From the NCBI RefSeq assembly GCF_004010195.1, contig NC_057718.1, positions 78,480,935-78,544,934 on the forward strand: a DNA stretch of 64,000 nucleotides, in the 5' to 3' direction. The DNA comes from Chiloscyllium plagiosum. Lineage: Eukaryota. Under the pieces are notes generated by a model. That model saw only the letters and a list, made by a program, of their open reading frames with translations. It searched no databases and was not told the DNA's origin. This document shows positions 23,501 to 64,000 of the stretch, piece by piece. Position 1 is the first letter of the stretch, and each line of letters opens with the position of its first letter. The position numbers and the translations under genes were made by a program.

Positions 23501-26500
23501 TTTTAATTGTCCAAGAAGCATACACTCATGCCACTTTCTGTAAGAGTTTCCATCCTCAAGAAAATAACCAATTCTACTCCTCCTTTCCCTCTCCAAGTTT
23601 TTCTAGTAACTATATTAACCATACATTAAACCTCCACCACATAAAGTATGTGTCTCACAAAAACATTATTTTATTCTGAAAAAATGACAAAATTTATCCA
23701 CAAACTAACTTGCCAGCTTTCCATCCCAGAGGGGTTTAGTTGTAAAACCCTCCCATTATCAGGAGCCTCATGTTTGTATACTGTCTCACTCACATAATTG
23801 AACTTTTTGAGGAGATCACTAGGATGGTGGATATTGGAGTGATTCTGGATATTGTCCAAATAGCCTTTCAGAGGTATTTCATAAGGTTGACAAGATTATT
23901 AACAAATATAAAAGTACATAAAATTAGAGGCAACGTTATGACATGTTAACTTTTTTGGGAGTTAGGAGACAGTGTAGAGATGCAGTAAACATATTCTGAT
24001 TGGCAATATGTGACAAGTAATGTTCCCAGGGTTGTGAACGAATGCGAGGTCTGTGAATTCCCAAAAGAAGTTCTCTACTCTAAGCTTTGTCACAAGTGTT
24101 TACCAAGAGGTCGGAGGAATTGCTTCAAGGATGACCCCAAGTCCTCCCTTAAAAAAAAATGCAATATCCCCACTAACTTGTGGGAATGTGTTTCCTAAGA
24201 TTGTCCAAATGTGTGGGAGAAGCATCCAAGAAGATGCCACCATTTTGAGCTTCCTGGTAGGCCCAGGTGGAGAACAAGCATAAACAACAGAAAGAGCAGG
24301 TGAAAATTCAAAACCCCACTCAATTGTGTCTTCAAACATCACCTGTCCAATCAGTGGTAGGGTGTGCAGATCAACAATAGGTTGTTTATTCATCCCATCT
24401 CATGACCCGGAATATTGGAGTGAAAAAAAAAAGTCAACCTTGCTCCCGAAGGACTGCTTAAGGAGAATATAATGGAGCTTGGCTTTTTGTTATTTTTTTA
24501 CTAAGTGGGGGAGTAGAAAGCTAATGTCAAAATGTGAAGATGAATTTCAAAGGTGCTGTATGTTTTACGATTGGTAGCAGAAAGTTTTGAAGAGACATAA
24601 TGGTGGCAAATAATGTTCCAGGTTAGAGAAATGTGGTCATTTATTTTTTTTATTAAGAAAAGACCAGAAACTATAGAGGAACTGCTGGAATGTCTGTATG
24701 ATCCCTGCCCCTCTCTGTGGAGCCCTCCTGGCATTATCTGTTTTCTTGATAAGAAGGGGCATCTGGATTGAAACTGAAATGCCTTGCCCTCCTCTGGCCT
24801 TGCTCCTGATGCTAGTGCAGGTCAGAGAGCCACTGAGCATTTTGCTGGAGCTGGACCTCTCAGGTAGGGAGAGGTGATTGTCTCTGTGCTGGAAAAGGGT
24901 GTAGGTGAATACCTGGTCAATATTTTTCATGAGGCTTCACTCTCTTCCACTTCTGAGGTGGTGCTGGTGAGAAGCAGTTCAGGTGGTGGGCCCTTACTCG
25001 CTGAGATTCCCAGGTTGCCATTAGTCTGCCATAACAGAAGTGGGAATGAGTTGATGACCCTGTAGAGCAGTTCATTAGATTACTTACAGTATGGAAACAG
25101 GCCCTTCAGCCCAACAAGTCCATACCGATCATCCAAAGAGCAACCCACCCAGACCCATTCCCCTACATTCACCCCTTCACCTATCACTATGGACAATTTA
25201 GCATGGCCAATTCACCTGACCTACACATTTTTGGACTGTGGAGGAAACCCACGCAGACACAGGGAGAATGTCCAAACTCCACCCAGACAGTTGCCTGAGG
25301 CGGGAATTGAACCTGGGTCTCTGGCACTGTGAGGCAGCAGTGTTAACCACTGTGCCACCGTGCTGCCCATTAATGATGTGGAGCAAAATGCCAGGTGATG
25401 CTCATCCAGGAATTGCAAAGCACCATTTTGCTCACTGTGTAAGTGGTCTTTCTGGTATCCTGTCATCACAGGAACAGTATAATTTACCCTGCGTTGGGTG
25501 TTCGATGATTCTTTCCAAAAAGGGGCTGAGATGCTTGATGTCTGCCACCTTCCCATTGGTCTTCAACCTCTTGACCCGGTCGAGTGCCAGTTTTCCCTGC
25601 AACGAGACAGGGAAAGCTCAAGAATGATGGGAATGGGTCCAAGAACAATTTGTAACCATACACAGTTGTACAGCATGGTAAAGCATCCCAAGTAGGTAGG
25701 AAGCGTTGAGGGCAGGAAGGGTTAGTAGTTTGAGAGGATGAAGTAAGCATGAGCCCTTAAGTGGACATGATCCAACATCCTTGATGAGATGTATTGCCAC
25801 TGGCAGATCTAGACTGTGTGATAGCCCTAGGGCTTGAGATCCTACAGAGAAGATGGTTAACCTTGCAGTATGCAGAAGGTTATTCACCTTCTTTCGGCAT
25901 TGTTGCTCATCCTGTTTTATTGCAGTTACAGAACTGGTCTGCATTAGGATCTGTGTTCAGGCTGGGTGAGGCTGGTGAACTGGCCTCCCACTGTGGTCAG
26001 TCAGGAGAGGACCAACTTCCTCTTGAGTAACTCTGCTGAGCATCACCTCCAGGGCAGTGTTTAGAAATATGGGAGTCAGTTAGGCCTTCTTCAGAGTCAT
26101 TCCTAGTGCCAATCACTACAGCCTGAGGGGCAGGTCCTGCTAGGCTTAAAAAATGGCACAGAGGCTTCAAATCCAGAAGGTTTTGTCAGTGGACAGAGCT
26201 TCTGGCTCTGCACAATATTTTATTTGCATAGGTAAATAAATTGAGAAGCATGTGATTCCATGAGATATGTTGATCTGGTTGATGACAAAGATTATGCGTT
26301 TCAACACGCTTACTATCATTCTTTACCTTTAAAGGAGAAAATGGTGCCCATTGTTATGGCCAATATGAGGGAGATCCCATGAGATCCAATTCTAGTGGCA
26401 TACCAAATACTTTGCATCAGCTGAAGTTATTGGTTAGATTGTTCAACTCAACATTGGACTTCAATAGCTTTCCCAGCCATATGAATTATTTATTTCCACT

Positions 26501-29500
26501 TGTGGCATGAATTGGTTTGTCCTGACATTCTCCCTGCATCTCATGTCCAAACCTTAAATCACTTTTCCATAGTCCTTTGACCAACAGAGTCATACAACAC
26601 ACAAACAGACCCTTTGATCTAGCCAGTCCATAATCCCAAACTAAACTAGGCCCACCTTCCTGCTCCTGGCCCATATCCTTCCAAATCTTTCCCCTTCATG
26701 TACTTACCTAAGCGTCTGTTAAACATTGTAACTGTGCCTGCAACCATTACTTCCTCAGAAAGTTCATTCCATGTCTTAAATCTTTTCATTTCTAACAAAG
26801 GAGCATCAAAATTAAATGCGAATGAATTATTTCTTTCTCAGTGTCGCCTGACACATAAAGATATTTAGCATTTCTATCAATCCAACAGGAGCCAGGGTTC
26901 TGCCTTCTCATCCCACTCCCACTTCTGGTGTCTCCCAAGAATCTCTCCTGGGTCTCACTCGATTTTTCATCTACATGCAGCCGAACAGTGACATCATTTT
27001 AAAAACAATGTCAGATTCCACAGCTATGCTGGCGATAGCCACTAACACCGCCATCAATCACTCTACTACCTTTGATTTGTTATGATGTTTGTCCATCGAG
27101 TAGTAAGTTACAAAAATTTGCTGTAATTAAATGTCAGGCAGACAAAATGAATTGTCCCAACTACAAACTCCATTCTCCAATCACCAATTTCATTCCTTTC
27201 CCTTAACAACTGAGACTATAAGAAGACCAATTAAAAACACGGTGAGCTACAGCACCCTGAACAAGGAGACTCAGTATTAGAATAAATCGGACCAGTCAGG
27301 ATAGAGATAGGAAGATATTTCTTCACTGAGAGGGTGGACTATCTTTGGAATTTTCTATCTCAGAGGACTATGAAAGTCGAGGTAGTTGAAGAAAATTGAT
27401 AGATTTCTAGATAGGACAACATCAAGGATTGTGCAGATAGTATGAGAAAATGCCTTTGAAGTAGGTGATCAGGCATGATCTGTAATGGCAGAGCAAGCCT
27501 GAGGGGTTCAATGACCTACTCTTCCTATGTTCCTAAAATTAACTTTGGATTTCCTATCCTCTGCCTACTTCTACCTATCGAACACAGCCTGTCTCCACTC
27601 TGTACCAACTCATCAGTTGTTGGAAACTTCAGTCAGGCCATGGATACCATAAGACTTGACTATTCCAATGTATCCCTTTGCTGGCCTTCCACTTATCCTC
27701 TGTAAACTAACGATTATCCAAAACTCTGTTACATTTTCTAACTAGCTGCTGACCTACCTTGTCTGCTAGTCTAGACATAAATTTTTAGAATTGGCATCCT
27801 TGGTTTCAAATTGCTCCATGACCAGGTCCCTTCCAATCTCTGTAACCCCCTTCAACCACCAAAGATCCCTGCATTTCTCCAATTCTGGCTTCTTGTACCC
27901 CCCTCCCAGCAATCATCACTCCACCTTGGTGATAATACTTTCAGCTTCCAAGGCCATTAAAACTTGAATTCCCTTATTTAACATCCATACAGCTGTACAT
28001 ACCTCCTCCTCTTTTCAAATGATCCTTGCGAAGTTGACTTCTTTGACCAAGTTTTAGTCAGCTGTAGTATCTCATGTCTCTTCGGTATATTAACTCGAAT
28101 TTTATTTCGTCAAAATCTCTATGAAGCACCTTGGAATATTATATTATGTTAAAGGCACTGCACAGGTTCAAGTTGGTGTTCAATAGAATGGGCTGTGCAA
28201 AGTTTGTGGTAATGATTATTTACCAAGTGACAAGTAATTGATAAAACAAGAGAAGCAAAGAATGTAAATTTAGTGAACTATCACAACATAAGCGAGCTCA
28301 ATTTAAAGGAACAAAAATAGAAATTGCTGGAAAACCTCAGCAGGCCTGGATTGTCTGTGGAGAACAAACAGAGTCAATGTCTTGGGTCCAGTGACCCTTC
28401 TTCAGAACTGATTGTAATTACGAAAAGATGGTGATGAAGACTGAAGGTGGAGAGGAATGGGGGGGTGGGGAGAATGGCGGGAGGGGATGGGGGAAGGAAT
28501 AAACAGTGAGAAGCAGCTGGAATTATAAGACAGCCTAATCATGCAGTACCATTTTTAATTGCCACGGGCAGTTCTCCTGGGTATTTTTCTGGAGCAGTCT
28601 CAATGGATTGCCAAATTTATTGAATTAAATTTCAGGACCGATCACATTGGGAAATGATCTCTTGGCCTTTGCTAGTCTAGATCAGTTAATGCTCACCAGA
28701 ATAAAGAAACCTAAATTAAAAACAGAAGCTGCTTGAAACTCTCAGGTCTGGCAACATCTGTGAAGAGTAAACAGAGTTAATGTTTCAGGTCCCGTGACTG
28801 TTCCTCACAACCATTGCTCAGTTCTGAACTTTAATTTTGATTTCTCTTCGCAGATGTTGCCAGACCTGCTGAGCTTTTCCAGCAACTTCTGTTTTTGTTT
28901 CTGATTTATAGCATCCACAGTAATTTCAGTTTTTAAGGGCACGGTGGCACAGTGGTTAGCACTGCTGCCTCGCAGCGCCAGAGACCCGGGTTCAATTCCC
29001 ACCTCAGGCGACTGACTGTGTGGAGTTTGCACGTTCTCCCCGTGTCTGCGTGGGTTTCCTCTGGGTGNNNNNNNNNNNNNNNNNNNNNNNNNNNNNNNNN
29101 NNTAATCTAATCTAATCTAATCTAAACTCACTTAATCTTTGTGAGGAAGTCACAAAGTGATGAAATTACTTCTCAAGACCGAGCAGTTCTATATTAGTCA
29201 TAAACAAAACTATTTTTTCTGCAAACACACATTCCTCACTTCTGTTTCATGATTCAGTGATATGAAAAACTAAACAGTCTGAAAATGTGTTTTCCTAACG
29301 TGCATCAGAAAGAATTATATTCCCGAGTGAATGTTTTACAAATTTAATTTAAACTAAATCATTTGTCTAGTTGCAAATAAATCTTTTACTGTTCTGTCCA
29401 TTCATTGCCAGGGGTGCTTGGTTTGATTGTTGGTGGCCTAGTGTTGCTCTTGCCTGAAACAAAGGGCATGACTTTACCAGACACCGTTGAAGATGTGGAG

Positions 29501-32500
29501 AATCTCAGACGGTAAGCAAACAGTGACAGAAGCACTTACCCATTGATGTGCTCTTGCCATTAACCTTACTCCACATTGTGCGCGCACTGGCAAAATTTCC
29601 TATCTCTGGCAATGCTACATCACTGCCAAGAGACCAATCACAAGGTCTATCAAGCTTGGATGCTCAATGATTGGAAGGTGGCAGGTCCTCAGTGCTGTTG
29701 GTGCAGTTCTCCCTCCCTGCCGCCCAACCAAGTCGAAACATTATTTCTCTCACTGCTACTCTGTGAGCTTTGCTACAGCTCCCAGCCTTAGTCTCTCCTT
29801 CTGACCTTGGCTGCAGCTCCCAGCCTTTGTCCCCACTCATGGTCTTTGCCACAGCTTCTGGAATTTTGACCTCATCTGCTCATGCATTACCAATGTGTTA
29901 TTATTATACATGAAACATAGTGATGTCAGCTGTGTATGCACTAATCTGTTCTGGTCTAGTGATGTTTGCCATCAGTAACTGATGAAAATAGGTCAATTTT
30001 CACATGTGGCCAGTCTGACTGTCATGTTTGTGGTAATCACTCTGAAAATAAAGAAAGGAAAGCTCTGCTGTAAGTTGGTGGGCAGATAGATTAACTGACA
30101 AAAGGTTTCATGTGACAAGTACGGAAATAAGAGACGTGTCCTGATAAATTGTGAACTGCAGATTGATTAGACAGACAGACAGAAGGAAGGAAGGAAGGCA
30201 GGCAGGCAGAGAAAAAAAAAGTCAAATCAGCAAACAAAAAAAAATCCAACAGGGCAGAGGTTTCAAATCAAAATTGTTGAAATAAGAATTGAGTTTGGAA
30301 AGCTGTAACATGCCTACTTTAAAAGTAAGATGTGGTCACTGTTCTTCAGGCTGACAGTGGGCTTGACTGGAACTCTGGAGGAGGATGAGAACAGAATGTT
30401 AGAATGTGAAAAAAGTTGAAGATTAAAATGAAAAGCGACAAGAGGTTCAGGGTCATTTCTGTGGACAGAACAGAGGTGTTCCACAAAGTTGTCATCTAGT
30501 AGTGGAGACCACATTGTGGGGAGTGAATATTAGATACTTAATTGAAAGAAGTACAAATAAATGGTTGCTTTGCCTTGGAGGAATATTTGGGAGTGCTTCT
30601 CCTAGACTTGTACAATGCATAGACATAGGAATAGGAGCAGACCATTCAGCCTGTTGAGCCTGCTCTGCCATTCAATTAGATCACGTCTGATCGTGCATTT
30701 TAATACCAACTTCTCCACACTATCTCCCTATCCTTTGTGTCATTAGATCCTGCAGAAGGTTAGGGTTAGCCTAATCTAGCCAAACTGTATTGATTTCAGT
30801 CTTGCAAATGCTCAATGACTGAACATCATACCCACCCACACCTCCCCCACCACCCAGCCTGATCCCTCCCCTCCCCCCCCAACACCCAGGTAGAGTATCC
30901 CAAAGAATCTCACCTGTCTGAGAGAATAAATTCCTTCTTCTACAAGTAATATCCTCAAACAGAAACTCTAAAGAGCTTGCCAAAAATGATTTCCTGTTCA
31001 TAAATCCATGTCTCTGCCTAACTTTACCATTCTTTTCTAAAACAGCTGAAATTATTGGGCACAATATTGTTGGTCTCACAGATGTGGCTCCAAGAGATCA
31101 GGACTGGGAACTAAGTATCCCAAAGAGATGTATCCTAATGAAAGGATAAGCAATGGGCATAGCGGCTGGGGTAGGATTACCTTGCTAGTAAAAAAAAACA
31201 AAATTGACAATAAGAGTGATATAGAGTTGGAAGGTGTAGAATCAGTATGGGTAGAGTCGAAGAACCGTAAAGGAAGGAAAATAACCCGAAAGGAGTTATG
31301 TACAGGTCTTCAAAAAGTAGTCAGGATGTGGGGCAGAAAATAAATTGTGAAATGGAAAAGGCTTGTAAGAAAGGCACTGTTACAATAATCAAAGGGGACT
31401 TCAAAACGCAGGAGGACTGGGAAGATCAGGTTGGTAGTAGATTTCAAGAAGAAGGATTTGTAGTATGTCTACGAGATGTTCTTTTTAGGAGCAGCTTGTT
31501 GCAGAGCCAGATTGGTGTCAGGCAGTTCAGGATTTAGTGATCTCTAACAGGGCAGACTCGATTGCCTTGTAAACCACTTATAGTTGAGATCCACCTTTAG
31601 AAAATTGTCCAAAATGAGTTTACAAGCATTGCCAATTGTAACTTTGAAATTGAATATTAAAACAAGTTATTTATTCTGTTGGGAAGCAGAACCCCAATGT
31701 AAATTTTTATTTTGAAGAACGATAGCTATTTCTTTTAAAAATAATGCTTTTGACTCATTATTTTGGACAAGAAAGCTGTTTGAACCACCAAAACATAGGA
31801 TATGAAATCGCTTACTTAAAGAGACAATGTTAATCATTTCAACTCAATTATTCTGAAGATCATTTCTATGTGGAATATTTCTAGTGTGTTGATCCAGGTA
31901 TTGAAATGCCTAACGCCACATTAAGCAGTGCATCAAGCACCACTGGTGAGTCCCTGATTTGAGTTTATAATGATGAAGAGTATGAATTGGCAGTGTTACA
32001 TATTGTACTCCTTGAAAAGAATGATGCAGTTGCCCAATATTGAAATTTTCCTGGCCATTTATGTCTGTGCAGGTTGTAAATAAAGTGTATTTGGAAAAAA
32101 AAATTGGGGCGATTGAGAGTTATAAGGTAGCCAGTAAGGATCTGAACAGAGAGCTAAGAGCAGCAAGGAGGGGACATGAAAAGTCCTTAGTTGGTAGGAT
32201 TAGGGAAAACCCAAAGGCTTTCTATAGGTATGTCAGGAATAAAAGAATGACTAGGGTAGGAATAGGTCCAGTCAAGGATAGTAGTGGGAAGTTGAGTGTG
32301 GAGGCTGAAGAGATTGGGGAGACACTGAATGAATACTTTTCGTCAGTATTCACTCAGGAACAGGATATTGTTGCCGATGTGAATACTGAGTCACAATTAA
32401 TTAGAATAGACGGCTTTGAGGTATGTAGGGAAGAGTTGTTGGAAATTCTGGAAAGGGTGAAAATAGGTAAGTCCCCTTGGCCTGATGGCATTTATCCTAA

Positions 32501-35500
32501 AATTCTCTGGGAAGCAAGGGAGGAGATTGCAGAGCCATTGGCCTTGATTTTTATGTCCTCGTTGTCTACAGGAGTAGTGCCAGAAGATTGGAGGATAGCA
32601 AATGTGGTTCCCTTGTTCAAGAAGGGGAGTAGGGATAACCCTAGTAACTATAGGCCGGTGAGTCTCACTTCTGTTGTGGGCAAAGTCTTAGAGAGAATTG
32701 TAAGGGATAGGATTTATGAACATCTGGATAGGAATAATGTGATCAAGGATAGTCAGCATGGTTTTGTGAAGGGCAGGTCGTGCCTCACAAACCTTATTGA
32801 ATTCTTTGAAAAGGTGACAAAGGAGGTTGATGAGGGGAAAGCGGTAGATGTGGTATATATGGATTTTAGTAAGGCGTTCGATAAGGTTCCCCATGGTAGG
32901 CTACTGCAGAAAATACGGAGATATGGCATTGAGGATGAGTTGGAGGTTTGGATTAGGAATTGGCTGGATGGAAGAAGACAGAGGGTAGTAGTTGATGGCA
33001 AAGTTTCTTCATGGAGTGCCGTCACTAGCGGTGTTCCGCAAGGATCTGTTTTGGGACCATTGCTGTTTGTCATTTTTATAAATGACCTGGAAGAGGGGTT
33101 AGAAGGTTGGGTGAGCAAGTTTGCGGATGATACGAAAGTCAGAGGAGTTGTTGACAGTGAGGAAGGATCTGGCAGGTTACAGCAGGATATAGAGAAGCTG
33201 CAGAGCTGGGCAGAAAGGTGGCAAATGGAATACAATGTAGCTAAGTGTGAGGTGACTCACTTTGGGAAGAATAACAAAAAGATGGGGTACTGGGCTAATG
33301 GTCGGATACTTGGTAGTGTGGATGAGCAGAGGGATCTTGGTGTCCATGTACACAGACCTCTGAAAGTTGCCACCCAGGTAAACAGTGCGGTGAGGAAGGC
33401 ATATGGCGTACAGGCTTTTATTGGTANNNNNNNNNNNNNNNNNNNNNNNNNNNNNNNNNNNNNNNNNNNNNNNNNNNNNNNNNNNNNNNNNNNNNNNNNN
33501 NNNNNNNNNNNNNNNNNNNNNNNNNNNNNNNNNNNNNNNNNNNNNNNNNNNNNNNNNNNNNNNNNNNNNNNNNNNNNNNNNNNNNNNNNNNNNNNNNNNN
33601 TTCTTTACTCAGTGAGTCGTGAGTTCATGGAATGCCCTGCCAGTAACAGTGGTGGACATTCCCTCTTTATGGGCATTTAAGCGGGCATTGGATAGGCATA
33701 TGGAGGATAGTGGGCTAGTGTAGGTTAGGTGGGCTTGGATCGGTGCAACATCGAGGGCCAAAGGGCCTGTACTGCGCTGTATTTTTCTATGTTCTATGAT
33801 TAAGGAGCTTAAGGTGAAGGAACACCAAGGGAATAGTTACCATAAGGTGATGGAATTCATTCTGCAGTTTGAAAGGGGAAAGCCGGAATCGGATATAACA
33901 GCATTACAATTGAATAAAGGTAACTACAAAGACATGAGGGAGGTGCTGGCCAGAATGAATTGGAAGGTGAGCCTAGCAGGAGTGAAACAGGAATGGTTGG
34001 GATTTCTGGGAGTGTTCCAGCAGGTTTGGCAGAAATTCATCCCAAGGAAGAAGAAATGTACTGAGGAGCATGGGGCAACCATGGCTGAAAAGGGAATTCA
34101 GGGAGAGTTTAATAGCAAAAGATGAAGCATACAATATGGAGAAGATTAGTGGGAAGGCAGAGGATTGGGAAGCCTTTAAAAACCAGAGGATAACACAAAA
34201 AAAGGGGAGAGGAAGATGGAATATGGGAGTAAACCAGCTGGTAATAAAAGACTGCAATTTTTTTTAGATCTGTGAAAGGTAAGGGAGCAGTAAGAGTGGA
34301 CATTGGACCGCTGGAAAGAAGGCTGGAGAAGCAGTAATGGGGAGCAAAGACATGGGGAGAAACTGAATAGGTACTTTGCATCAGTTTTCAGAGTGGAAGA
34401 AATCAGCAGTGCACCAGAACTTCAAAAGAGTCAGGGAGTAGAGGCGAGTGTATTGGCCCATCACTGAGGTGCTGCTGGGGAAGCTGAAAGTGGATAAATC
34501 AGATGAACCATACCCCAGAGTTCTGAAGGATAGCAGAGGAGATTGTGGTGGTGTTGGTGATAATCGTTCAGGAATCACTGGTGTCAGGGAAAAATTGCTA
34601 ATGTAACACCCCTTTTTAAGAAGGGAGGGAGGCGGAAGATAGCAATCTATAAGCTGATTATTGTTGTGGGTCTGGAGTCACATGTAGGCCAGTAGAAATG
34701 GCAGTTTCCTCCCCCAAAGGATACTAATGAGCCAGATGAGTTTTTCCCACAATTCTCAATAGTTTTATGATCATTAGACTCCTAATTTCAGATATTTGTT
34801 GAATTCAATTTCAACCATCTGCCATGGCAGGATTCATACCTGTGTCCCCTGAACATTACCAGGGTCTCTGGATTAATAGTTTGGTGATAATACCACTGTG
34901 CCATCACTTCCCCTTAACTCAGGGTAAGCACTCTCGAAGGGGCATCTGATTGAAACTTACAGGATACCAAAAGGCTTGAATTGAGTGCACATGAACACAA
35001 TGTTTCCACTAATACCACAGATGAGGACCAAAGGCACAGAGTGAAGTAATGACCCTTTAGAACTAAGATAAGGAATAATTTCTTCAGCTAGCAGGTGGTG
35101 AATCTGTGGAATTCGTTGCCACAGAAGGTTTTTAAGGCTATGTCATTGTATTATTTGCACAGGGAGATAGGTTCCAGATTAGTAAGGACACCAAGGTTTA
35201 TGGGGGGGGGGGGAAGGAAGGAGAATAGGGTTGAGAAATATATTAGACATGACTTGAAGAATCGAATGGCCTAATTCTGCTTCAGTATATTATGGTCCAG
35301 TTATCACATCCTTTATTATAGATTCTAACATTTTTCAACAACTATGGAAAGGTGAGGGATATTGAGAGTGATTGAACAGTGGACTAGAGTATAGAGGAGA
35401 GAGTGGTCCTGTCACGATGCTGCAAGGTGAGTGGAAAACGTATTTGGTGGTTACTTCATGCTGGAGATGTGGAAATGGTGTAAGATCATATGTTAAACAG

Positions 35501-38896: not shown

Positions 38897-41042
38897 TTGG
38901 ATGTAGGTTTGCTCGCTGAGCTGAAAGGTTCATTTCCAGATGTTTCATTACCTTACTAGGTAACATCTTCAGTGGACTTCATGCGAAGCAATGCTGAAAT
39001 TTCCTGCTTTCTATTTATATGTTTGGGTTTCTTTGGGTTGGTGATGTCATTTCCTGTGGAGAAGTCACTTCCTGTTCCTTTTCCCAGGGGGTGGTAGATG
39101 GGGTCTAACTCAATGTGTTTGTTGATAGAGTTCTGGTTGCAATGCTATGCTTCTAGGAATTCTCGTGCATGTCTTTGTTTGGCTTGTCCTAGGATGGATG
39201 TATGGTCCCAGTCGAAGTGGTGTCCTTCCTCATCTGTATGTGAGGATACTAGTGAGAGAGGGTCATGTCTTTTTGTGGCTAGTTGGTGTTCATGTATCCT
39301 GGTGGCTAGTTTTCTGTCTGTTTCTCCAATGTATTGTTTGTTACAGTCCTTGCACAGTATTTTGTAAATGACGTTAGTTTTGCTCATTGTCTGTATAGGG
39401 TCTTTAGCCTTTAAGTTCATTAGCTGCTGTTTTAGTGTGTTGGTGGGTTTGTGGGCTACCATGATGCCAAGGGGTCTGAGTAGTCTGGCAGTCATTTCCA
39501 AAATGTCTTTGATGTAGGGGAATGTGGCTAGGGTTTCTGGACGTGGTTTGTCTGCTTGTTTGGGTTTGTTACTGAGAAATCGGCGGACTGTGTTCATTGG
39601 GTACCCAGTCTTTTTGACTGTACAGTATAAGTGATTTTTCTCTGCTCTGTATAGTTCCTCTGTGCTGCAGTGTAGTAATGTTTGAAGTAATGTTCTCTTT
39701 GAAGTAATGTTCTCGTGCAGTTTCGTCTGTTGGTGTTGGGATGATTACTTCTGTAGTTCAATATTTGTTCTGTATGTGTTGTTTTTCTGTAGATGCTGGT
39801 TTGAAATTCCCCATTAGCTGTTTGCCATTGGGTAATCCGTAGAAGTGTGGTGTGTTGGATCCATCTGGTTTCATTTTTTGGAAGTCTGTCTTATTTATTT
39901 GTCCAGATTTCTGAACTGTTTTAAATAGGGCTGTGATTTGGTTCTCTAGTTGTGGGGTCAGGTCTATTGCCACTTGTTGGTACGTGTTGGTATCTGTAAG
40001 TAGTGAGTTTGTTTTTTCAATGTAGTCTCTTCGATTTAGAATGACTGTCAAGCTTCCTCTGTCTTTTGGTAGAATAATAATGTTTTTATCTTTTTTTAGT
40101 CTTTCCAGTGCTTTCCTTTCTTGTGTAGAGTGTGTTTCCTTCCTTTTTTCTGCTTAATGTTGGAGTGACTACTTGTCTGATGGATTGTTGGGTTTCTTCT
40201 GAGAGTTGGTTGTCTTTTAGTGTTGTTTCTAATGCTGATAAGAAATCTTTGTTGTCCGCATCCTGGTAATTTAGTCCTCTTACTAAGACGGCTTTTTCAG
40301 TGACTGTTAAAGGTCAGTCAGATAAGTTTTTTATCCATGCTTCTCTGTTATAATTGTTGTTACTTTGTGTAAGTTTATCTAGTTTTTTTTGCAGGTCTAG
40401 TTTTTTCATTTTCCATGTTTGTCATTGCCTAATATCTATGGCTTGTTGTACTGTGTCTGTCCATTCATGCAACGTCTGTTGCATGACTAAGTAAAGATTT
40501 TTGATGTAAAGTTTCCAGGTTGTATTTACAGAGTCTGTTGTGGGGATTATTAATCATTTCTTTAAGCATTCTGCTGCCATTTTGCTCTGCTATTATGGCT
40601 AGTGGGATGTTAAGGGGAGATTTGTATTGAAGACATTTAGGTCATACCTGCTTCCTTAGGCATTTGTTCGCGGGTGGCACTCTGTCGGATGACATTCGTT
40701 TCCCGTTTTTGGGTCAGTTTTAGCGTATTACGCCCATAGGTCTTAACGAGTTTTGAGAAGATTTGTAGCTCAACAAACACAATGAGTTAGACCCCATCTA
40801 CCACCCCCTTAGAAAAGAACAGGAAGTGACTTCACCACAGGAAATAACATCACCAAAGGAAATGATATCACCAACCCAAACATATAAATAGAAAGCAAGA
40901 AGTTGCAGCATTGTTTTACATGAAGTCCACTGAAGATGTTACCTAGTAAGGTAATGAAAAATCTGGAAATGAACCTTTCATCTCAGCGAGCAAACCTACA
41001 TCCAAAACCTCAACCTGAGCTACAAATCTTCTCAAAACTTGC
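38897..41042 (-). mobile_element. Penelope family A element with internal RT deletion and inverted pseudo-LTRs
   Basis: ORF 39145..39597 VIYKILCKDCNKQYIGETDRKLATRIHEH; 38897-39125 is inverted at 40770-41005; hammerhead-like motifs at 38936-38975 (-) and 40927-40966 (+). Confidence 0.9.
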
Positions 41043-41128
41043 TGTTGCGTATACATCAAGAGACAGTTTAGGAGAGAACAGCCTCAAGCTAAGAGGTGTA
41101 GTAAAGAAGATAAACAATATCCCTAGTT

Positions 41129-41765
41129 AAAAATCACACAACACCAGGTTATAGTCCAACAGGTTTATTTTGAAATACTAGCTATCAGGGTGCTGCTCCT
41201 TCATCAGGTTGCTGTGGAGCAGGGCTGTAAGACAATATGTAGCAAAAAGGTTACAGTATCTGCATTTACAGAATTATTTCAGATTCATTCTATTTCGCTC
41301 AAAAAGTGTACAATCTGCAGGCAGTCATTCTGCGTAATATTTTATAAATTCCACTTTGGAAATAGAACCAGTCTGGCTCAAGATTGGGATACAGACAGAC
41401 TCTAACCTCACACCTTTAATGCAATATCTGAGCTGAAACATCACTTTTTTAAAAAAAAACCTACACTATCTTGGGAATGTGACTTAAAAGCAGCTCTGGG
41501 ATTTACATGTTAATGAACCGAAACCTGCAATCCATTCTAAAAGATGAAAAACTTAACAGCATTCTAGGTTTGTTCAATATCATTTCAGTTTCATGAACTG
41601 CAATCTTTTGCTAAAATTCTGTGTCTTATGGTCCTGCCCCACAACTACCTGATGAAGGAGCAGCGCTCTGAAAGCTCGCGCTTCCAAATAAACCTGTTGG
41701 ACTATAATCTGGTGTTGTATGATTTTTAACTTTGTCCACCCCAGTCCAATAGCAGCTCCTCCACA
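41129..41765. mobile_element. Short Penelope-derived element (family D) with about 130 bp inverted ends carrying hammerhead motifs
   Basis: aaaaatcacacaacaccagg...ccttcatcagg is mirrored at 41596-41729; atatccctag occurs on both flanks. Confidence 0.75.
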
Positions 41766-48779: not shown

Positions 48780-49102
48780 TTAGATTAGATTAGATTAGAT
48801 TACTTACAGTGTGGAAACAGGCCCTTCGGCCCAACAAGTCCACACCGACCCGCCGAAGCGCAACCCACCCATACCCCTACATTGACCCCTTTACCTAACA
48901 CTACGGGCAATTTAGCATGGCCAATTCACCTAACCTGCACATCTTTGGACTGTGGGAGGAAACCGGAGCACCCGGAGGAAACCCACGCAGACACGGGGAG
49001 AACGTGCAAACTCCACACAGTCAGTCGCCTGAGTCGGGAATTGAACCCGGGTCTCTGGCGCTGTGAGGCAGCAGTGCTAAGCACTGTGCCACCGTGCCGC
49101 CC
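48780..49102 (-). mobile_element. Young full-length HE1-type SINE
   Basis: CpG-rich copy with A and B boxes and (TAATC)n tail. Confidence 0.94.
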
Positions 49103-49627
49103 CTGTTTTCCTCAGTGGTGTGCTCAAACTCCCGAGAACCCCAAAGCTTCCAACCTAGCTAGCAGGTAGGGGAAGGCAAGGACATGGGACCCCACAGGTA
49201 GGAAGACTGATTTATGTTTCTGGGATTAAAACTGCTGTTTAGGTTCTAATGGTGTTTAATTTAATAATAACAGTCCTCTGTATAACTGATAGTGTTAATT
49301 TCATTGTTCAGTACTTTTACCCTGTACTTCTTGTATTACACTTACCTTTTTTATTTAAGTAGATACAGAGATTCTTTTACCCCGAAATACCTGTCTACTT
49401 CCTTCTTCATTTCACCATTCCCTAAATAAGTCCAGCAGCAGAACCAGGGATCTGGGGGGTGATTCAAACAATGTCAAATCAGCAGATTACTGTCTGCAAA
49501 CCAGAACCTGCATCTTCTCTCCTGCCCCCTTCTATCCTTCATATAGCATCTATACCCTGGAACAGTAAGCTGCCAATCCTATCCATTCCTGAGCCATCAA
49601 ACTGCCAGTCCTGTCCTTTCTTGAGCT

Positions 49628-50545
49628 GGAAATGTGTTGCTGGAAAAGCGCAGCAGGTCAGGCAGCATCCAGGGAATAGGAGAATCGACGTTTCGGGCAT
49701 AAGCCCTTCTTCAGGAATGAGGAAAGTTTGTCCAGCAGGCTAAGATAAAAGGTAGGGAGGAGGGATTTGGGGGAGGGGCGTCGGAAATGTGATAGGTGGA
49801 AAGAGGTCAAGGTGAGGGTGATAGGTCAGACGGGAGTGGGGGCGGAGAGGTCGGGAAGAAGATTGCAGGTTAGGAAGGCGGTGCTGAGTTCGATGGATTT
49901 GACTNNNNNNNNNNNNNNNNNNNNNNNNNNNNNNNNNNNNNNNNNNNNNNNNNNNNNNNNNNNNNNNNNNNNNNNNNNNNNNNNNNNNNNNNNNNNNNNN
50001 NNNNNNNNNNNNNNNNNNNNNNNNNNNNNNNNNNNNNNNNNNNNNNNNNNNNNNNNNNNNNNNNNNNNNNNNNNNNNNNNNNNNNNNNNNNNNNNNNNNN
50101 NNNNNNNNNNNNNNNNNNNNNNNNNNNNNNNNNNNNNNNNNNNNNNNNNNNNNNNNNNNNNNNNNNNNNNNNNNNNNNNNNNNNNNNNNNNNNNNNNNNN
50201 NNNNNNNNNNNNNNNNNNNNNNNNNNNNNNNNNNNNNNNNNNNNNNNNNNNNNNNNNNNNNNNNNNNNNNNNNNNNNNNNNNNNNNNNNNNNNNNNNNNN
50301 NNNNNNNNNNNNNNNNNNNNNNNNNNNNNNNNNNNNNNNNNNNNNNNNNNNNNNNNNNNNNNNNNNNNNNNNNNNNNNNNNNNNNNNNNTCTTAGCCTGC
50401 TGGACAAACTTTCCTCATTCCTGAAGAAAGGCTTATGCCCGAAACGTCGATTCTCCTATTCCCTGGATGCTGCCTGACCTGCTGCGCTTTTCCAGCAACA
50501 CATTTCCAGCTCTGATCTCCAGCATCTGCAGACCTCACTTTCTCC
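49628..50545. mobile_element. Young Penelope-like family C element with inverted pLTRs around a gap
   Basis: 49624-49745 and 50390-50512 are near-perfect inverted repeats. Confidence 0.85.
49683..49718 (-). ncRNA. Minimal type I hammerhead motif; inverse copy at 50417-50452 (+)
   Basis: ATTC-CTGAAGA-aGGGCttatGCCC-GAAA-CGTC-GATT. Confidence 0.75.
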
Positions 50546-56450: not shown

Positions 56451-57244
56451 GGGCCTTGGGTGAGAGTACTAAACTGGGAAAGGATAATAATAACAATATT
56501 AGGCAGGAACTGGGGAATGTAGATTAGGGATAGCTGTTTGAGGGTAAATCCACATCTGTCATGTGCAAGTTGTTAAAGGGCATTTGATTGGAGTTCAGGA
56601 CCAGCACATTCCTGTGAAATTGAATGATAAAGAAGGCAAGATGCAGGAATCTTGGATGACAAGGGAAATAGTGAGCTTAGTCAGAAAGGGAAAGGAAGCA
56701 TAAGGAAGGTTTAGGAAACTGAAGACAGACAGACCCTTTTAGGAATATAAAAGACAGGAGGAAGGACTTAAACAAGGAGAAGTGACAAAGATGATTGATG
56801 AGGACAGTGTGGTAAATATTGTCTACATAAACTTCAGCCATGCCTTTGCCAAGGTCCCTCATGGCAGGCTGGTAAAGAAGGTGAAGTCACATGGGATCTG
56901 CGGTGAGCTGCTAAGATAGGTACAGAAGTAATTTGGTCATAGAAGACAGAGAATAGCTTTGGAAAGGTGTTTTTCTGACTGGAGATCTGTGATCAGTGGT
57001 GTTCTGCAGGGATGAGTACTGGGATCCCTGATGTTTATAATATTTGTCAATGGTTGGAGAAGAGTGCAGGTGGTCTGATTAACAAGTTTTGCAGATGACA
57101 CAAACGTTAGGGAGCTGCAGATAGTGAGGGAGATTGCCAAATGATACAGTAGAGGCTTGGGTGGAGAAATGGCAGATGGAATTTAATCTGGAGAAATGCG
57201 AGGTGATGCATTTTAGAAGGTCTAACACAGGAGGGAAGTATACA

Positions 57245-57457
57245 TGCCGTGACTGGAACAAGGTCGGTCAGGTGGATCTCATTGACTATGTGTTCCCTGA
57301 CTGTGACTGTTAATCTGTCCAATCAGGGAGTCCTGGCTTACAGTATAAGCATTCTGTTCACTCTAGGAGCCAACTCTGAGCTAGCTGGGTCAGTATCATA
57401 TACTAAACACAAAGGATGACTTGGTGACAGGATACTGGTCTTCCTGGAGTTATTTCA
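57245..57457 (+). mobile_element. Solo LTR, 213 bp
   Basis: TG...CA ends; 5 bp flanks ATACA/ATCCA; internal CCAAT and TATAA; removing it restores the CR1 sequence. Confidence 0.72.
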
Positions 57458-58580
57458 ATCCAATAAATGGCAGAACACATAGAAGCAGTATTATGCAGAG
57501 GGATCTAGGCATACAGGTCCACAGTTCCCTGAAAGTGGCTACACAGGTGGATAAACTGGTTAAGAGGTGTTTGCCTTCACTGAACTACATTAAGAATACT
57601 TTGTATAGTTTACCAGAAGGATATGGAGGCTTTGGAGAGAGTACAGAAAAGGTTTACCAGGATGTTGCCTGGTTTGGAGGCTATTAATTATGAGGTGAGA
57701 TTTGACAAACTTGGTTTATTTTCACCTGAATATTGAAATCTGAGAGATGACATGATAGAGGTTTACAAAATTATGAGAGGCATGGACATTCGGAGTCTTT
57801 TTCCTTGGGTAGAAATGTCAATTACTAGGGAACATAGGTTTAAGATAAAAGGGGGTAGGTGTAGAGGAGATGAGGGGCTTTTTTAAAACAGAGGGTGATA
57901 AGTGCTTGAAATGCACAACCAGATGAGGTGGTAGAAGCAGACACAATAGTAATGTTTAAGAAACACCTTGACAGCTACTTTAATAGAGGAGTATGGAGGC
58001 AAAAGGTTTTTAGTTTAGAAAGGCATCATGTGTTGGTATTAGGATTGGTGGGGCAAACAGCCTGTTCCTGTGCTGTACTGTTCGTTGTCACGTTGTACCA
58101 AATCCCACTGGACCTCCAGGCCTTGAGCACAGAAATCTTGGCTGACTCTTCAGTGCAGTATGAAGCAAATGCTGAATGATTGGTGTCATAACCAGTTCAG
58201 GTGTATCCACACAATGGTCTGCAAATAGTATATTTGTATAGCTCATTCATCTTCCTTTTAGTTTTTAACTGCTCCAACGTGAAAATAACCAGCAGCTGAG
58301 CTTTTGTGTAAACAAGATCAAATATTTGTTTATCCACAAAGATTAAAAGGAGCTAGTAATAACATTCTTCCCTTTCTTTTAGTTTTTCTTGTATTCTCTG
58401 TCACCATGTCCTCTCTCTCTCCTCCCCCCAATCCAGTTGGACCATCTGTTCTTTACAGTCTGACATTTAGACACACCATTGGTCTACCATTCTCAAAATC
58501 TGATCACTTAATCGGAAGTAGCAAAATCCTTGCCCCCCCCCCCCCCCCGCCCACCCCCCGCCGTGTCCACACTTTACATC

Positions 58581-58616
58581 AGCTCTGATGATGAGCCAAG
58601 ACTTGAAACATTAGCT
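58581..58616 (+). ncRNA. Decayed hammerhead motif in a Penelope 3' end (about 58370-58705)
   Basis: AGCT-CTGATGA-tgagccaagactt-GAAA-CATT-AGCT. Confidence 0.6.
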
Positions 58617-59854
58617 TGATCTCTCCACAGATGCTGCCTGGCCCACTGTGATTTCCAGCATTTTTGTTTCCAGTACAAATTCCGGCATCTGCAATAATTT
58701 GCTCCTATTACAGTACCAACAAAGTATCCTTATAAAGACGAGCGCAAGATCAGTCTGTTATTGTTGTACACCTAATTGTTTCTTGATGACTTACCTTTAT
58801 GAATGAAAGAGCCGAAAGCATGAAATCAGATTGAGCAACTGTGATGGCTTCCATAGTCAAATAGTTGGAGGTTACTTGTACAGGTGCATCCAGTTGCTGG
58901 AGTAGGTTTCAAGAAAGAGAGAAGCTTTCTTGTTCTTCACTGGTTCTGCAGTTACAACACTTGAAGATTGGCTAGACTCTTTTGGCAGAGCTGCAGTAGA
59001 TTGTCCTTTTTGTAAGCCTGCTTTGGTTGAGAACCCAATCTCTCAAGACACTTTACTGGAGAGACTGATTCGGAATTATGCCTCAGCCAGTCCTATGCAG
59101 AGCAATATGGCTGCTACATTAAATTTTGATGAATCATTGTTGCACAAAGTAACCAAGTTCCACTGTGGTATATCTTCATTATACTTAGAAGCATTGAATT
59201 TTCATACCTTTAGAAAACTTCTTTGAGGGTGATGCTGAGATAACATATCAGTCTGTCTGTCTTTCTGGCTGAAATGAATCTGCAATGTGACTCATGGGAG
59301 TCATCTTGTATGTTGCTGTGTCCATTCTAAAAGGTCAGATTAGGCTTTTTTGTAAACTAAGATTCAAATTACACAGTTTTCACGGTTGGAGACACAATCT
59401 TTTGCATGAAATGCTAAACTGAGGGTGACAAAGAGTTTGAGTCACATTTCAAAGTGTCCTGACCAATGCCTGCTCTTCAGCCAAGACGTTTGAAACACAT
59501 GATTTGGCCATCATTACGATGTTGTGAGTGTACTTTGCTTTCTGCAATTTTGCTAGCCAGATTTCCTCCATTGCTACAGCAATAATAAAAGCGACTGCTA
59601 CTGTTTGGCACATCTGAATTGTAAAGTACCTTAGAAAATTATTTTTATGATAAAATTGCTGACATTGTCCCAGGAGAATTTAGAAGTTAGGGGTTGGGGT
59701 GTGTATGATAGGTTTGTAGAGCTTCTGCGTACCTCAAATTTATTTGCTGCTTTGGAGCAGGAACACTAAGCCCAATGTCCTTAATCAACATTTACAATCA
59801 GGAGCTATGTAAATCCAAATGATATTTGTTATATATCAACATCCTGTGAGTTAA

Positions 59855-60178
59855 GATTAGATTAGATTCCCTACAGTATGGAAACAGGCCCTTCGGCCCA
59901 ACGAGTCCACACTGACCCTCTGCAGAGTAACCCATCCAGACCCACTTCCCCCCCGCCAAAATTTACCCTGGCTAATGCACCTAACACCATGGGCACAGCC
60001 AATTCGCCTAACCTGTACATCTGTGGATTGTGGGAGGAAACCGGATAATCCAAAGAAACCCACACAGACACAGGGAAAACATGCAAGCTCCACACAGACA
60101 GGCACCTGAGGCAGGAATTGAACCAAGGTCCTGGCACTGTGAGGCTGCAGTGCTAACCATTGATCCACTGTGCCACCC
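59855..60178 (-). mobile_element. Older HE1-type SINE
   Basis: Same architecture as the other copies, diverged. Confidence 0.88.
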
Positions 60179-61328
60179 CATGTTTATCATAACACCTACC
60201 TTATTCATTGATCAGAGTTTCAACTGATTAGCCATATAAATACCATGCTATAAACACAGGAAAATGGTTGGGATTTTTTTTTGTGGTGGTAACACATTCC
60301 ACTATCTAAAAAGGTACAAATCAGAAGTGTAATGGAACAGGCTCCAGTTGACTGAATGAACAGGGCTCTAACAACATTTAATGAGCATGACACCATCCAG
60401 GACAATGCAGCTGACTTATTGGCATGTCATACACCACAACATTTACTCCCTTCATCATCAACTCACAGTGACAGCATTGTGCACAATCCACAGGAAAAAC
60501 TGCAACAAGTCAGCAGGACTACAGCAAAATCCATGTCTGCAAGAGAAACAAAACCGGCAAGTGTGTGGGAACAACACAACGTACAAGTTCCCCTACAAAT
60601 CACGTCATCCTAACTTAGAATTATTCTCACTATTCTTCACAGTCACTGTGCAAAAATGGTGAAACACCCACTCTAACAGCACCACGAAAGTTCCTTTATT
60701 CATTCAGATATCAGTGGTTCAAGAAGGCAGATCACTAATTGTTTTTCAACAGCAATTAGAGGTGGGCAATGAGTGCTGGCTTTGCCAGCAGTATTCAATT
60801 CCTGTGGGTAAAAACAAGGGAAAGGGCAGGAAGATGGAAGTGAGGAATGTTGAATAAGCCATGATCCTACTCGAGGGACTGAAATGTCTATTCCTGTTAC
60901 TATTTCTTATGGTCTTAAGACTGGGCAAACAGATTTCACCTGCTTTGCTAAAGGATGTCATACTGAGATTGAGAAAAGTGATTTTAACAGGTCACTGCAT
61001 TAAAATTATTAACTTTGACATCTATCCAAATGCCTTGTGACCTATGATGCAAAACATCTGACCGTGTAATGTTTAATTTTCAAATGTTGAAAATTTATGT
61101 TACAGCAGCAAAAATCTCAGTCTTTTGCACCCCAAAAATATCTGAGGCTGGCTTACTTGGAAACTTCAAAACTTAGATGGATAGAGTTTTACTTGATAAG
61201 GGTTTTAAAGAATAGAGTGCAAGTTATGAAAATAGAACCAATATATAGAAAAACCATGAGGAAATTGAGTGACAGAACAAATTTGAGAGGCTGAATAGCC
61301 TAATTGTTTTCCTATGTCCTGTATGATC

Positions 61329-61847
61329 ACTGGCACTCGACCGGGTCAAGAGGTTGAAGACCAATGAGAAGGTGGCAGACATCAAGCATCTTAGCCCCTT
61401 TTTGGAAAGAATCATCGAACACCCAACCCAGGAAAAATTAGTACTGTTCCTGTGATGATAGGGATACCAGAATGACCACTCACACAATGAGCAAAATGGT
61501 GCTTTGCAATTCCTGGATGTGCTTCACCTGGCATTTTACTCCACATCATTAATGGGCGGCACAGTGGTTAGCACTGCTACCTCACAGCGCCAGAGACCCG
61601 GGTTCAATTCCTGCCTCAAGTGGCTCTCCGTGTGGAGTTTGCACATTCTCCCGGTGTCTGAGTGGATTTCCTCCGGGTGCTCCGGTTTCCTTTTACAATC
61701 CAAAAATGTGCAGGTTAGGTAAATTGGCCATGCTAAATTGCCTGTAGTGTTAGGTGAAGAGGGGAATGGGTCTGAGTGGGTTGCGCTTCGGTGGGTCGGT
61801 GTGGACTTGTTGGGCTGAAGGGCCTGTTTCCACACTGTAAGTAATCT
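61329..61847 (+). mobile_element. HE1-type SINE (61554-61847) carrying a 225 bp Harbinger-derived 5' extension (61329-61553)
   Basis: Inverted copy of 25074-25591. Confidence 0.9.
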
Positions 61848-62504
61848 GATAGTTTGATGATATGTTGCCACGAGTCAGCACTAAATGGAATCTCCTGTCA
61901 GTCCACACAGAACTTTTTCCAAACTTGCTGCATAATACTGAATTATGATTTCCAAATCTGTGATGTCTATTGGGAGACTTGATCACTGAATTCATTCTAC
62001 TGTTTCATTTTGAATTTCTTTCTTTCTGTGGCATGATTACATTAAATGAGAAAGAATGAATCAGTCACAAGACTTCCTTCTGATTTAAGGCTTAAGTTTT
62101 ATCACCATTCGTGAGTAATTGCAAAGGAACATTTGAAACCTGTGGAGTGGAGGAGGTGCAGGTTGGTGCTTGTCTGGGGACAGCCTGCTGGAGGCCACCA
62201 GGGATCTAAAATAGTAAATGGTTAAACAGTTAATTGATTAATGTTGTTCTTGCCATTAACATATTGCAATTCCTGTTTAAAACATTTGATGAGTGATTGT
62301 TTATTTGGAAGCCATTAGTAATTCTTGAGGGTATTAAGTAAAAAGTTTCTAGTTGTTCCTGTAGATTTATTTTTTATTCCTTTTCATCTTTGGTAAATAC
62401 ATAAATCCTCTGTATCCACGAAATCAGGTCTTGCAAATTGACCTATCCACACCAAGAAATAAGTAACAACAAAAGTCAAGATTTGGACTGAGGTGTACAA
62501 ATTT

Positions 62505-62660
62505 AAAAATCACACAACACCAGATTACAGTGCAGCAGGTTTAATTGGAAACACTAGCTTTCAGAGTGCTGCTCCTTCATCAGGTGGTTATAGCGCTCTG
62601 AAAGCTAGTGCTTCCAATTAAACCTATTGGACTATGACCTGGTGTTGTATGATTTTTAAC
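62505..62660. mobile_element. Palindromic mini-element made of two family D pLTR ends; hammerhead motif at 62552-62586 (-)
   Basis: CAC-CTGATGA-aggagcagcactct-GAAA-GCTA-GTG; arms match 41129-41210 and 41660-41729. Confidence 0.75.
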
Positions 62661-64000
62661 AAAATTCAACGTCCTCAGGAAAAAAAATCACATTCGTGAT
62701 TTTGAATATTCCTTATTCGCAAAGCTTCTTAGTAATGGAACCCTCATAGATAATACGAAGGAATGACTTTGTAATTTAAAGAGTGAATTAAATGCTTCAG
62801 TATTTTGTTTTTAGCAAATGCATCTGCTAATGTTTAAATGGTTACCTGATATAATTAAAATTGTTTAAATGGTTACTTTTTAAAATATCCACATTCCTAG
62901 TTGCCACAATCGTGGGGTCTACCTACCAAACCCTGGGCCATTAAAATCATTCCATCACCAACTTTCACATGCTTCCTTCCTTCATGCAGTTCTGCTCCCA
63001 TTCATACCTCCTCTGCAGCCATTTTTATTACCACACCACCACCTAATATTGCTTTGCATCAGCATTTTTGTCATCTAGCACCTTGCTCTCTAGCACCATT
63101 TTACTTTATCAAATTTCACTTCCTTTGCTACCCTTCTCATTTTCCCTGTATCAGCTTAAAAGTTGTTTATATCTAAACATCTCTCCAAAATGCTGCCAGA
63201 CCTCCTGCATATTTGTACTTTTTCTGTTTTAACTTCCAGTATCTGCGTTTAGTTTGCTTTGGTTTGAAACTCATTCATTGATGTTAAAATAAATAACACA
63301 AAGGACTGTGACTTCAGTGTAAGCTCTTTGCAAATTAGACCCCTTATAAGGACATTCTGAACCAAAGTTCAGCTGGAAAATTGACCTTTGATTTTATCAT
63401 TTAATCATCCATCTAATCTCAGTGTTGCAATATACCTGTCCAGTGAACTGAATCCTACTGTCTCCATCGTCTTTGTTTAAAAGTGCACATTGTTAATCAG
63501 AGACGTATTTAAGATAAACGAAGAAGAGACAGGCATAACAATCTGGCCACAATGTATCTGGATTTGTTCCCTTATCACACTCTTCTCCAGTCACCCAATT
63601 AACAAATTTTAATTTCTAACATTATTTTCAAGATAGTTTCAGCTTAGCTTTATATTAGCTGAACTCATACAGATATACTGACAATGCCATGTCAAATCAT
63701 TGTACAGAGTTGTTCCCTTCTGTCAAATTTTGAATGGGATATGATGGTAGACAGGATTGATACTCCACATTAGGACATCAGTTGTTAAGTAGTTAATTTA
63801 ATAAAGAAAGGCTTACATTTATATAACATCTTTCATGGAGCCATTTATGTGTTACAATGTAGGAAGAATTGACAGCTTTATGAACAACAATGTCCCACAA
63901 ATAGCAATGAGAATTTTCAAAAACGTTGTTTTAAGCACGGTTGAAGAATTAATAATATCTCGGACACTGGGGAGATCACTTCTCTATTTCTTTGAATGGG

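Follow-up and report, generated by a model that had tools for sequence, protein, structure and literature searches.

Several described systems place foreign sequence at the 5′ end of a retroposon or build chimeras by changing templates, and our comparison with each of them draws on excerpts of the cited papers. In SVA_F1, an exon was spliced to the element, which then expanded, and pt_SVA_D6, with 94 copies, also arose by splicing (PMC6139936). Inserts of ZfL2-2, an L2-CR1-type LINE and a retroposon of the stringent type, carry extra nucleotides at their 5′ ends that come largely from flanking DNA, for which template jumps have been proposed (PMC4245944, PMC2666801). FoSTeS/MMBIR involves long-range template switches and, like one-sided invasion, has a 3′ end that invades a similar sequence nearby and goes back after copying a short tract (PMC4888836), and the head swap of PittSINE yielded a chimera by a switch during reverse transcription (PMC5729268). 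In sharks and rays, the HE1 V-SINE, which a SINE/LINE table gives with the HER1 LINE (PMC3747384), combines a CR1-like tail with A and B boxes of the tRNA type (PMC3747384, PMC4824008).

Within the window, by which we mean the whole 64,000-nt stretch of DNA analyzed here, a SINE near 61 kb carries at its 5′ end exon and intron sequence from a site 36 kb away. We favor, with moderate confidence, the reading that this element is a one-off chimera whose SINE body came from another source copy and whose extension was added in a homology-primed template switch. As in SVA_F1 and pt_SVA_D6, exon sequence lies 5′ of a non-autonomous retroposon; however, an intron stub of approximately 120 nt is kept here, there are two copies and nothing has expanded, so the analogy with SVA_F1 drawn in the first-pass annotation fails. 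The ZfL2-2 inserts share the presence of nearby DNA at the 5′ end, although they gained several nucleotides of flank, whereas the 220 nt captured here originated 36 kb away, with priming apparently provided by the head of a paralogous SINE. The FoSTeS/MMBIR-like invasion, copying and return would also apply to this locus, yet the insertion is small and has one SINE-homologous and one non-homologous join. Unlike the PittSINE chimera, the element gained no new promoter and founded no new family. In the literature searched, in which open journals were covered far better than subscription journals, we found no account of this locus or of SINE-primed local flank copying in sharks.

A self-BLAST of the window matched 61329–61850 in inverted orientation to 25074–25591 (84.3% over 540 columns, E 2e-173). 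The duplicate reported earlier for 61329–61847 against 25591–25074 is thus real, but the end that matches 25074 is 61850, not 61847. It consists of two parts, an extension of approximately 220 nt and a SINE. Between the two sites the extension has 208 matches, 12 mismatches and 2 gaps (5.5% different), and its only matches in the window are these two copies, while the SINE recurs in the window in six or more further copies, full or partial. Similarity extends no farther than 61329/25591 on one side and the SINE tail on the other, and the 600-nt flanks beyond score at the level of shuffled sequence (their scores were reached by 163 of 300 and 135 of 300 shuffles), which bears out the earlier description of the flanks as unrelated. 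Segmental duplication was rejected on the same grounds, the flanks at both ends scoring like shuffles.

On the forward strand at 61 kb, the element opens with a copy of exon 2 of a Harbinger-Myb-like fossil from its sixth base (61329–61432, corresponding to 25591–25488), the exon being called from splice signals and a by-eye protein match. As first described, this copy begins 5 nt past the inferred acceptor AG (25598–25597), and the T5 run noted in the extension lies at 61399–61403. The intron stub follows (61433–61553); its last bases are TAAT, the left copy of the target duplication around the 25-kb SINE, and the donor GT of the copied intron reads AA here. The HE1-like SINE itself occupies 61554–61847 and has younger-type bases at 61785 and 61792. 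Private deletions are present in each copy, as previously reported: 20 nt at 25 kb, and 8 nt plus 10 nt in the 61-kb SINE. Neither a spliced junction nor poly(A) was found in 61329–61850, with which an unspliced template is compatible. The left flank is a CR1-type 3′ tail fragment (61276–61328, forward strand, ending in TATGATC), in keeping with the earlier call; its first part, 61276–61322, is 77% identical to 6923–6970. The sequence TGAT after the SINE tail (61847–61850, forward strand) may be a decayed tail unit or a short target duplication. TGAT stands on both sides of the element, and other SINE copies are also without a clear duplication. We did not accept the pair as a target duplication, as the left TGAT could be native to the CR1 tail, and TATGAT is likewise the end of a CR1 tail elsewhere in the window.

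At 25 kb, the SINE lies on the reverse strand (25078–25368), is of the same type as the copy at 56.1 kb, and is flanked by a TAAT(G) target duplication (25372–25369 and 25077–25074). This duplication, the place of the SINE within intron 2 of the fossil and the Harbinger-like sequence to either side of it mark 25 kb as the source of the extension, as had been proposed; the template corresponds to 25369–25591 on the reverse strand. The fossil, a decayed Harbinger-Myb-like gene that is near single-copy, spans approximately 24680–26100 on the reverse strand, with exon 1 at about 26079–25861, exon 2 at 25596–25488 and exon 3 from 25059. It resides in an intron of an SLC22A1/2/3-like (OCT) host gene, of which two exons and the intron holding the donor site cover 23240–29500 on the forward strand; the exons match OCT1/OCT2 (E 2e-12). 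Pfam and protein database searches with the Myb-like exons returned nothing relevant, the one match being an unrelated repeat protein. A Harbinger Myb-like gene would be marked by a Myb/SANT-like domain followed by a TGGG..LTPFEER-type motif. By eye, the ends of fossil exons 1 and 2 agree in spacing and motif with Harbinger-3_DR as given in the excerpted supplement of PMC9179366, and we accept the Harbinger-Myb label as probable. No terminal inverted repeats (TIRs) or linked transposase were recognized at the fossil, from which they have possibly decayed. Part of fossil intron 1 (25616–25817) is a moderate repeat, with a summed depth of 74–224 in all three organisms described below, approximately 10–25 times single copy, and one contig of organism A has 23 gap positions at 25714–25912.

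The SINE is probably the HE1 V-SINE, a name assigned by description and from the SINE/LINE table of PMC3747384. V-SINEs are also marked by an 80-bp V domain. The A and B boxes of its tRNA-derived head were found in four matches in the window against none in 100 shuffles; owing to the deletion in its head, the 61-kb SINE does not fit the pattern. The tail is 74–82% identical to CR1 ends at 11.5, 16.3 and 45.1 kb. Rfam gave no matches, nor did SINE motif scans of two metagenome, two genome and one viral collection. A protein of Stegostoma tigrinum carries an antisense reading of the SINE, by which the genome is shark-type. Such readings were found in 13 proteins among 14 candidates, none of them informative on the linkage of diagnostic bases. 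In the young copies at 12415–12774 and 48789–49169, the antisense strand is an open frame of approximately 120 aa, and a Stegostoma gene model fuses the antisense reading to a PF00080 domain, which would be either exonization or an annotation artifact. Hundreds of RNA reads at the tail of the 25-kb SINE (25074–25084) have poly(A) directly after it, 809 of them at 25074; these are likely products of internal priming, the genomic flanks after the tails also being A-rich.

Were the 61-kb element a retrocopy or a wholesale copy of the 25-kb site, its SINE would be expected to descend from the one there, and we compared seven informative SINE copies in this respect (eight were aligned, one of which is a 5′ half). 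Outside CpG sites, the 25-kb and 61-kb SINE bodies differ at 17 of 228 positions, while the 61-kb copy differs from the younger 48-kb copy at 15 of 239 and from the 56-kb copy at 21 of 245, and the 25-kb and 56-kb copies differ at 21 of 238; the kinship of the two bodies in question thus does not exceed that of unrelated copies. A single base of the SINE body is exclusive to the 25-kb and 61-kb copies, and it lies at a CpG. Seven diagnostic characters, chosen with CpG-decay columns left out, separate the type of the 12-kb and 48-kb copies from that of the 25-kb and 56-kb copies, and the 61-kb SINE is like the 25-kb copy at five of these and like the 12-kb and 48-kb copies at two. It has G at 61785 and T, a CpG decay of C, at 61792, where the 25-kb and 56-kb copies and the older 59-kb and 37-kb copies have T and A, respectively. 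In simulation, at least two such matches among six substitution sites arose by mutation alone with a probability of 0.002–0.010; the two discordant bases are 7 nt apart, and a single short later conversion by another SINE would suffice. No subfamily with this base combination was found in the motif scans of the collections or in the antisense-protein searches. The extension differs less between the two sites (12/220) than the SINE does (32/277) in raw counts (Fisher p 0.018), but masking of CpG sites leaves no significant difference (11/212 versus 19/237, p 0.26). Judged from these alignments, the evidence leans toward a 61-kb SINE body that does not descend from the 25-kb SINE.

For copy number and age, contigs of three organisms (A, B and C) and one RNA run were aligned to 24000–27000 at 82% likeness. 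A run search had placed the stretch or part of it in 20 entries from 7 studies, with no RNA run among them; four of 24 listed runs were used, the portion read was 85% for run B and 64% for run C, contigs drop variants, and some differences in organism A are left uncounted. Summed depth is not copy number, and we used it as a rough guide alongside the contig list. Long contigs have a depth of approximately 6 in A and 11–12 in B and C, and the fossil parts upstream and downstream of the extension are mostly at one to two times that depth. In bins of the extension, depth rises to 16–20 (A), 28–31 (B) and 29–30 (C), or 2.5–3.4 times the single-copy level. At 25528 it is 21.1 in B and 21.5 in C, two contigs' worth against approximately 11 for one, and SINE bins reach a depth of approximately 1e6. 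In B and C, 25458, 25479 or 25553 is also covered by a third short contig; bins flanking the extension show similar stray short matches. The extension is thus present in about two copies, at most three, and the fossil in about one, in all three organisms.

In organism B, one contig spans 25372–26681 and represents the donor ortholog, while another aligns exactly to 25372–25591 and continues into other sequence. The 61-kb boundary is present in all three organisms, as is the base of the 61-kb type at 25553, which lies 39 nt short of where its piece ends; this shared boundary and shared marker bases are the grounds for treating the 61-kb site as orthologous in B and C. Orthologs diverge by 3.1% between A and B and by 4.3% between A and C, against the 5.5% separating the two extensions. 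Since the boundary occurs in three organisms and the divergence of the extensions exceeds that of the orthologs, the element goes back to one old event before these splits. Gene conversion has likely followed in organism C, as read from table values: a 148-nt contig at depth 22.1 (against approximately 11) aligns to 25338–25479 with 9 gap positions, as many as distinguish the two copies of organism A over the same interval and thus the 61-kb count, and overlaps the start of the donor contig by approximately 30 nt. We take this contig to represent one tract present at both sites; the probability that two copies would be identical over the 148-nt tract by chance is 0.0015. This tract suggests that the two sites pair as DNA, and conversion between the copies could itself have reduced the divergence of the extension.

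Under the template switch that we favor, the SINE body at 61 kb would trace to a different source copy and not to the 25-kb SINE. The head of this other SINE would supply a free 3′ DNA end, either nascent cDNA at the 61-kb retroposition, in the manner of the ZfL2-2 inserts, or a break in a resident SINE (PMC4888836), and this end would pair with the near-identical 25-kb SINE head one GGCAC repeat out of register, with the loss of 8 nt; 220 nt of upstream intron and exon would then be copied from 25 kb, and the copied strand would be released and joined to the CR1 tail at 61328. We infer both the switch and its site, for which the candidate is the 8-nt deletion between GGCAC repeats that lies at the join, 4 nt into the 61-kb SINE. 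A switch would account for the end at the tail, the 36-kb distance, the mixed ancestry and the 8-nt loss, all four. Two points count against it: short repeats can lose the sequence between them with no switch involved, as the 20-nt deletion at 25 kb shows, and the SINEs closer by, at 59.9 and 56.1 kb, did not serve as template. Taken singly, a switch during integration and one during later repair are each less likely than not, the former slightly ahead; the junctions fit both alike, TGAT being found on both sides and a CR1 tail in the window also ending in TATGAT.

The first-pass annotation had instead proposed read-through by Pol II into the SINE, with retroposition through its CR1-like tail. 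Taken as a single event, this would mean that an unspliced minus-strand transcript of the fossil was reverse-transcribed from that tail and inserted nearby in cis from nascent RNA, with conversion or chance later changing two bases. Several of its elements stood, as the 3′ end falls exactly at the tail, the 5′ end looks truncated, the flanks are unrelated, TGAT stands on either side of the element, and the SINE tail matches CR1 3′ ends in the window, a kind of tail that stringent LINEs recognize according to the excerpted PMC3747384. What did not fit is that the 61-kb SINE body shows no special kinship to the 25-kb SINE and that random landing within 36 kb has a prior of approximately 2e-5 (genome size assumed to be 3–4 Gb). 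The copy moreover has no splice junction, the left TGAT may belong to the CR1 tail, and there were no RNA reads on the extension or fossil in 2% of one single-cell poly(A) run, which carries little weight where the event is ancient; overall we regard read-through as unlikely. Plain local copying of DNA, in which extension and SINE came together from 25 kb by a FoSTeS/MMBIR-like templated insertion with TAAT/TGAT microhomology at the tail, would suit the short distance, the inverted orientation and the statistically uniform non-CpG divergence (the p of 0.26 given above). It nevertheless requires a chance breakpoint within approximately 4 nt of the tail and leaves the two discordant SINE bases to be explained as well, which makes it improbable.

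Membership in a multi-copy family of composite exon-plus-SINE retroposons, the other option offered in the first-pass annotation, could draw on the 2.5–3.4-fold summed depth and the third short contig in B and C, but with depth at 25528 of two contigs' worth in those organisms, SINE bins near 1e6 and stray matches in the flanks too, the count of about two and at most three extension copies in the contigs of all three organisms speaks against a composite subfamily, and we hold it to be highly improbable. A deleted remnant of a second, SINE-carrying Harbinger copy would yield the common SINE insertion point. Against this, Harbinger-like sequence above shuffle level was absent from 56500–61328 and 61851–64000, no convincing TIR pair was seen, the fossil is approximately single-copy in three organisms, and two deletions would be required, one of them ending at the tail, so that this origin is equally hard to credit. 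Neither of the two outcomes named in advance as contradicting a transduction, segmental duplication and such a Harbinger remnant, fits the 61-kb copy in the flank and TIR searches.

As one dead copy of sequence derived from a transposon, the 61-kb element has no evident function. Its wider interest is that an apparent 5′ transduction by a SINE can be a template-switch chimera, and that the ancestry of the SINE body separates the two. It is rather doubtful that the CR1/SINE machinery of sharks regularly copies sequence from tens of kilobases around an insertion site, whether by a cDNA jump to a SINE paralog or by use of chromatin-tethered nascent RNA with a SINE tail; if it did, dense SINEs would offer a general local route of exon duplication where stringent LINEs make few ordinary retrogenes. 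Local pairs, if common in shark genomes, would likewise give SINEs a short-range way to duplicate neighboring exons.

Elsewhere in the window, a CR1-type reverse transcriptase frame on the forward strand (32025–33800) runs for 467 aa without a stop until it meets an assembly gap (RVT_1, E 3e-37) and belongs to a fairly young LINE. Nested direct and inverted repeats, whose frames look Penelope-like by eye, occupy 18194–22479 and 38897–41043, and some of them adjoin an assembly gap. The window also has small MITE-like repeats that are palindromic, as well as an inverted pair, 99% identical, with a gap between its arms (62503–62659, 41125–41257, 41597–41749, 15166–15212; 28307–28907; 49623–50512), and an open frame of 106 aa on the forward strand at 58906–59226 had weak Pfam matches only (Peptidase_C98, E 0.03).
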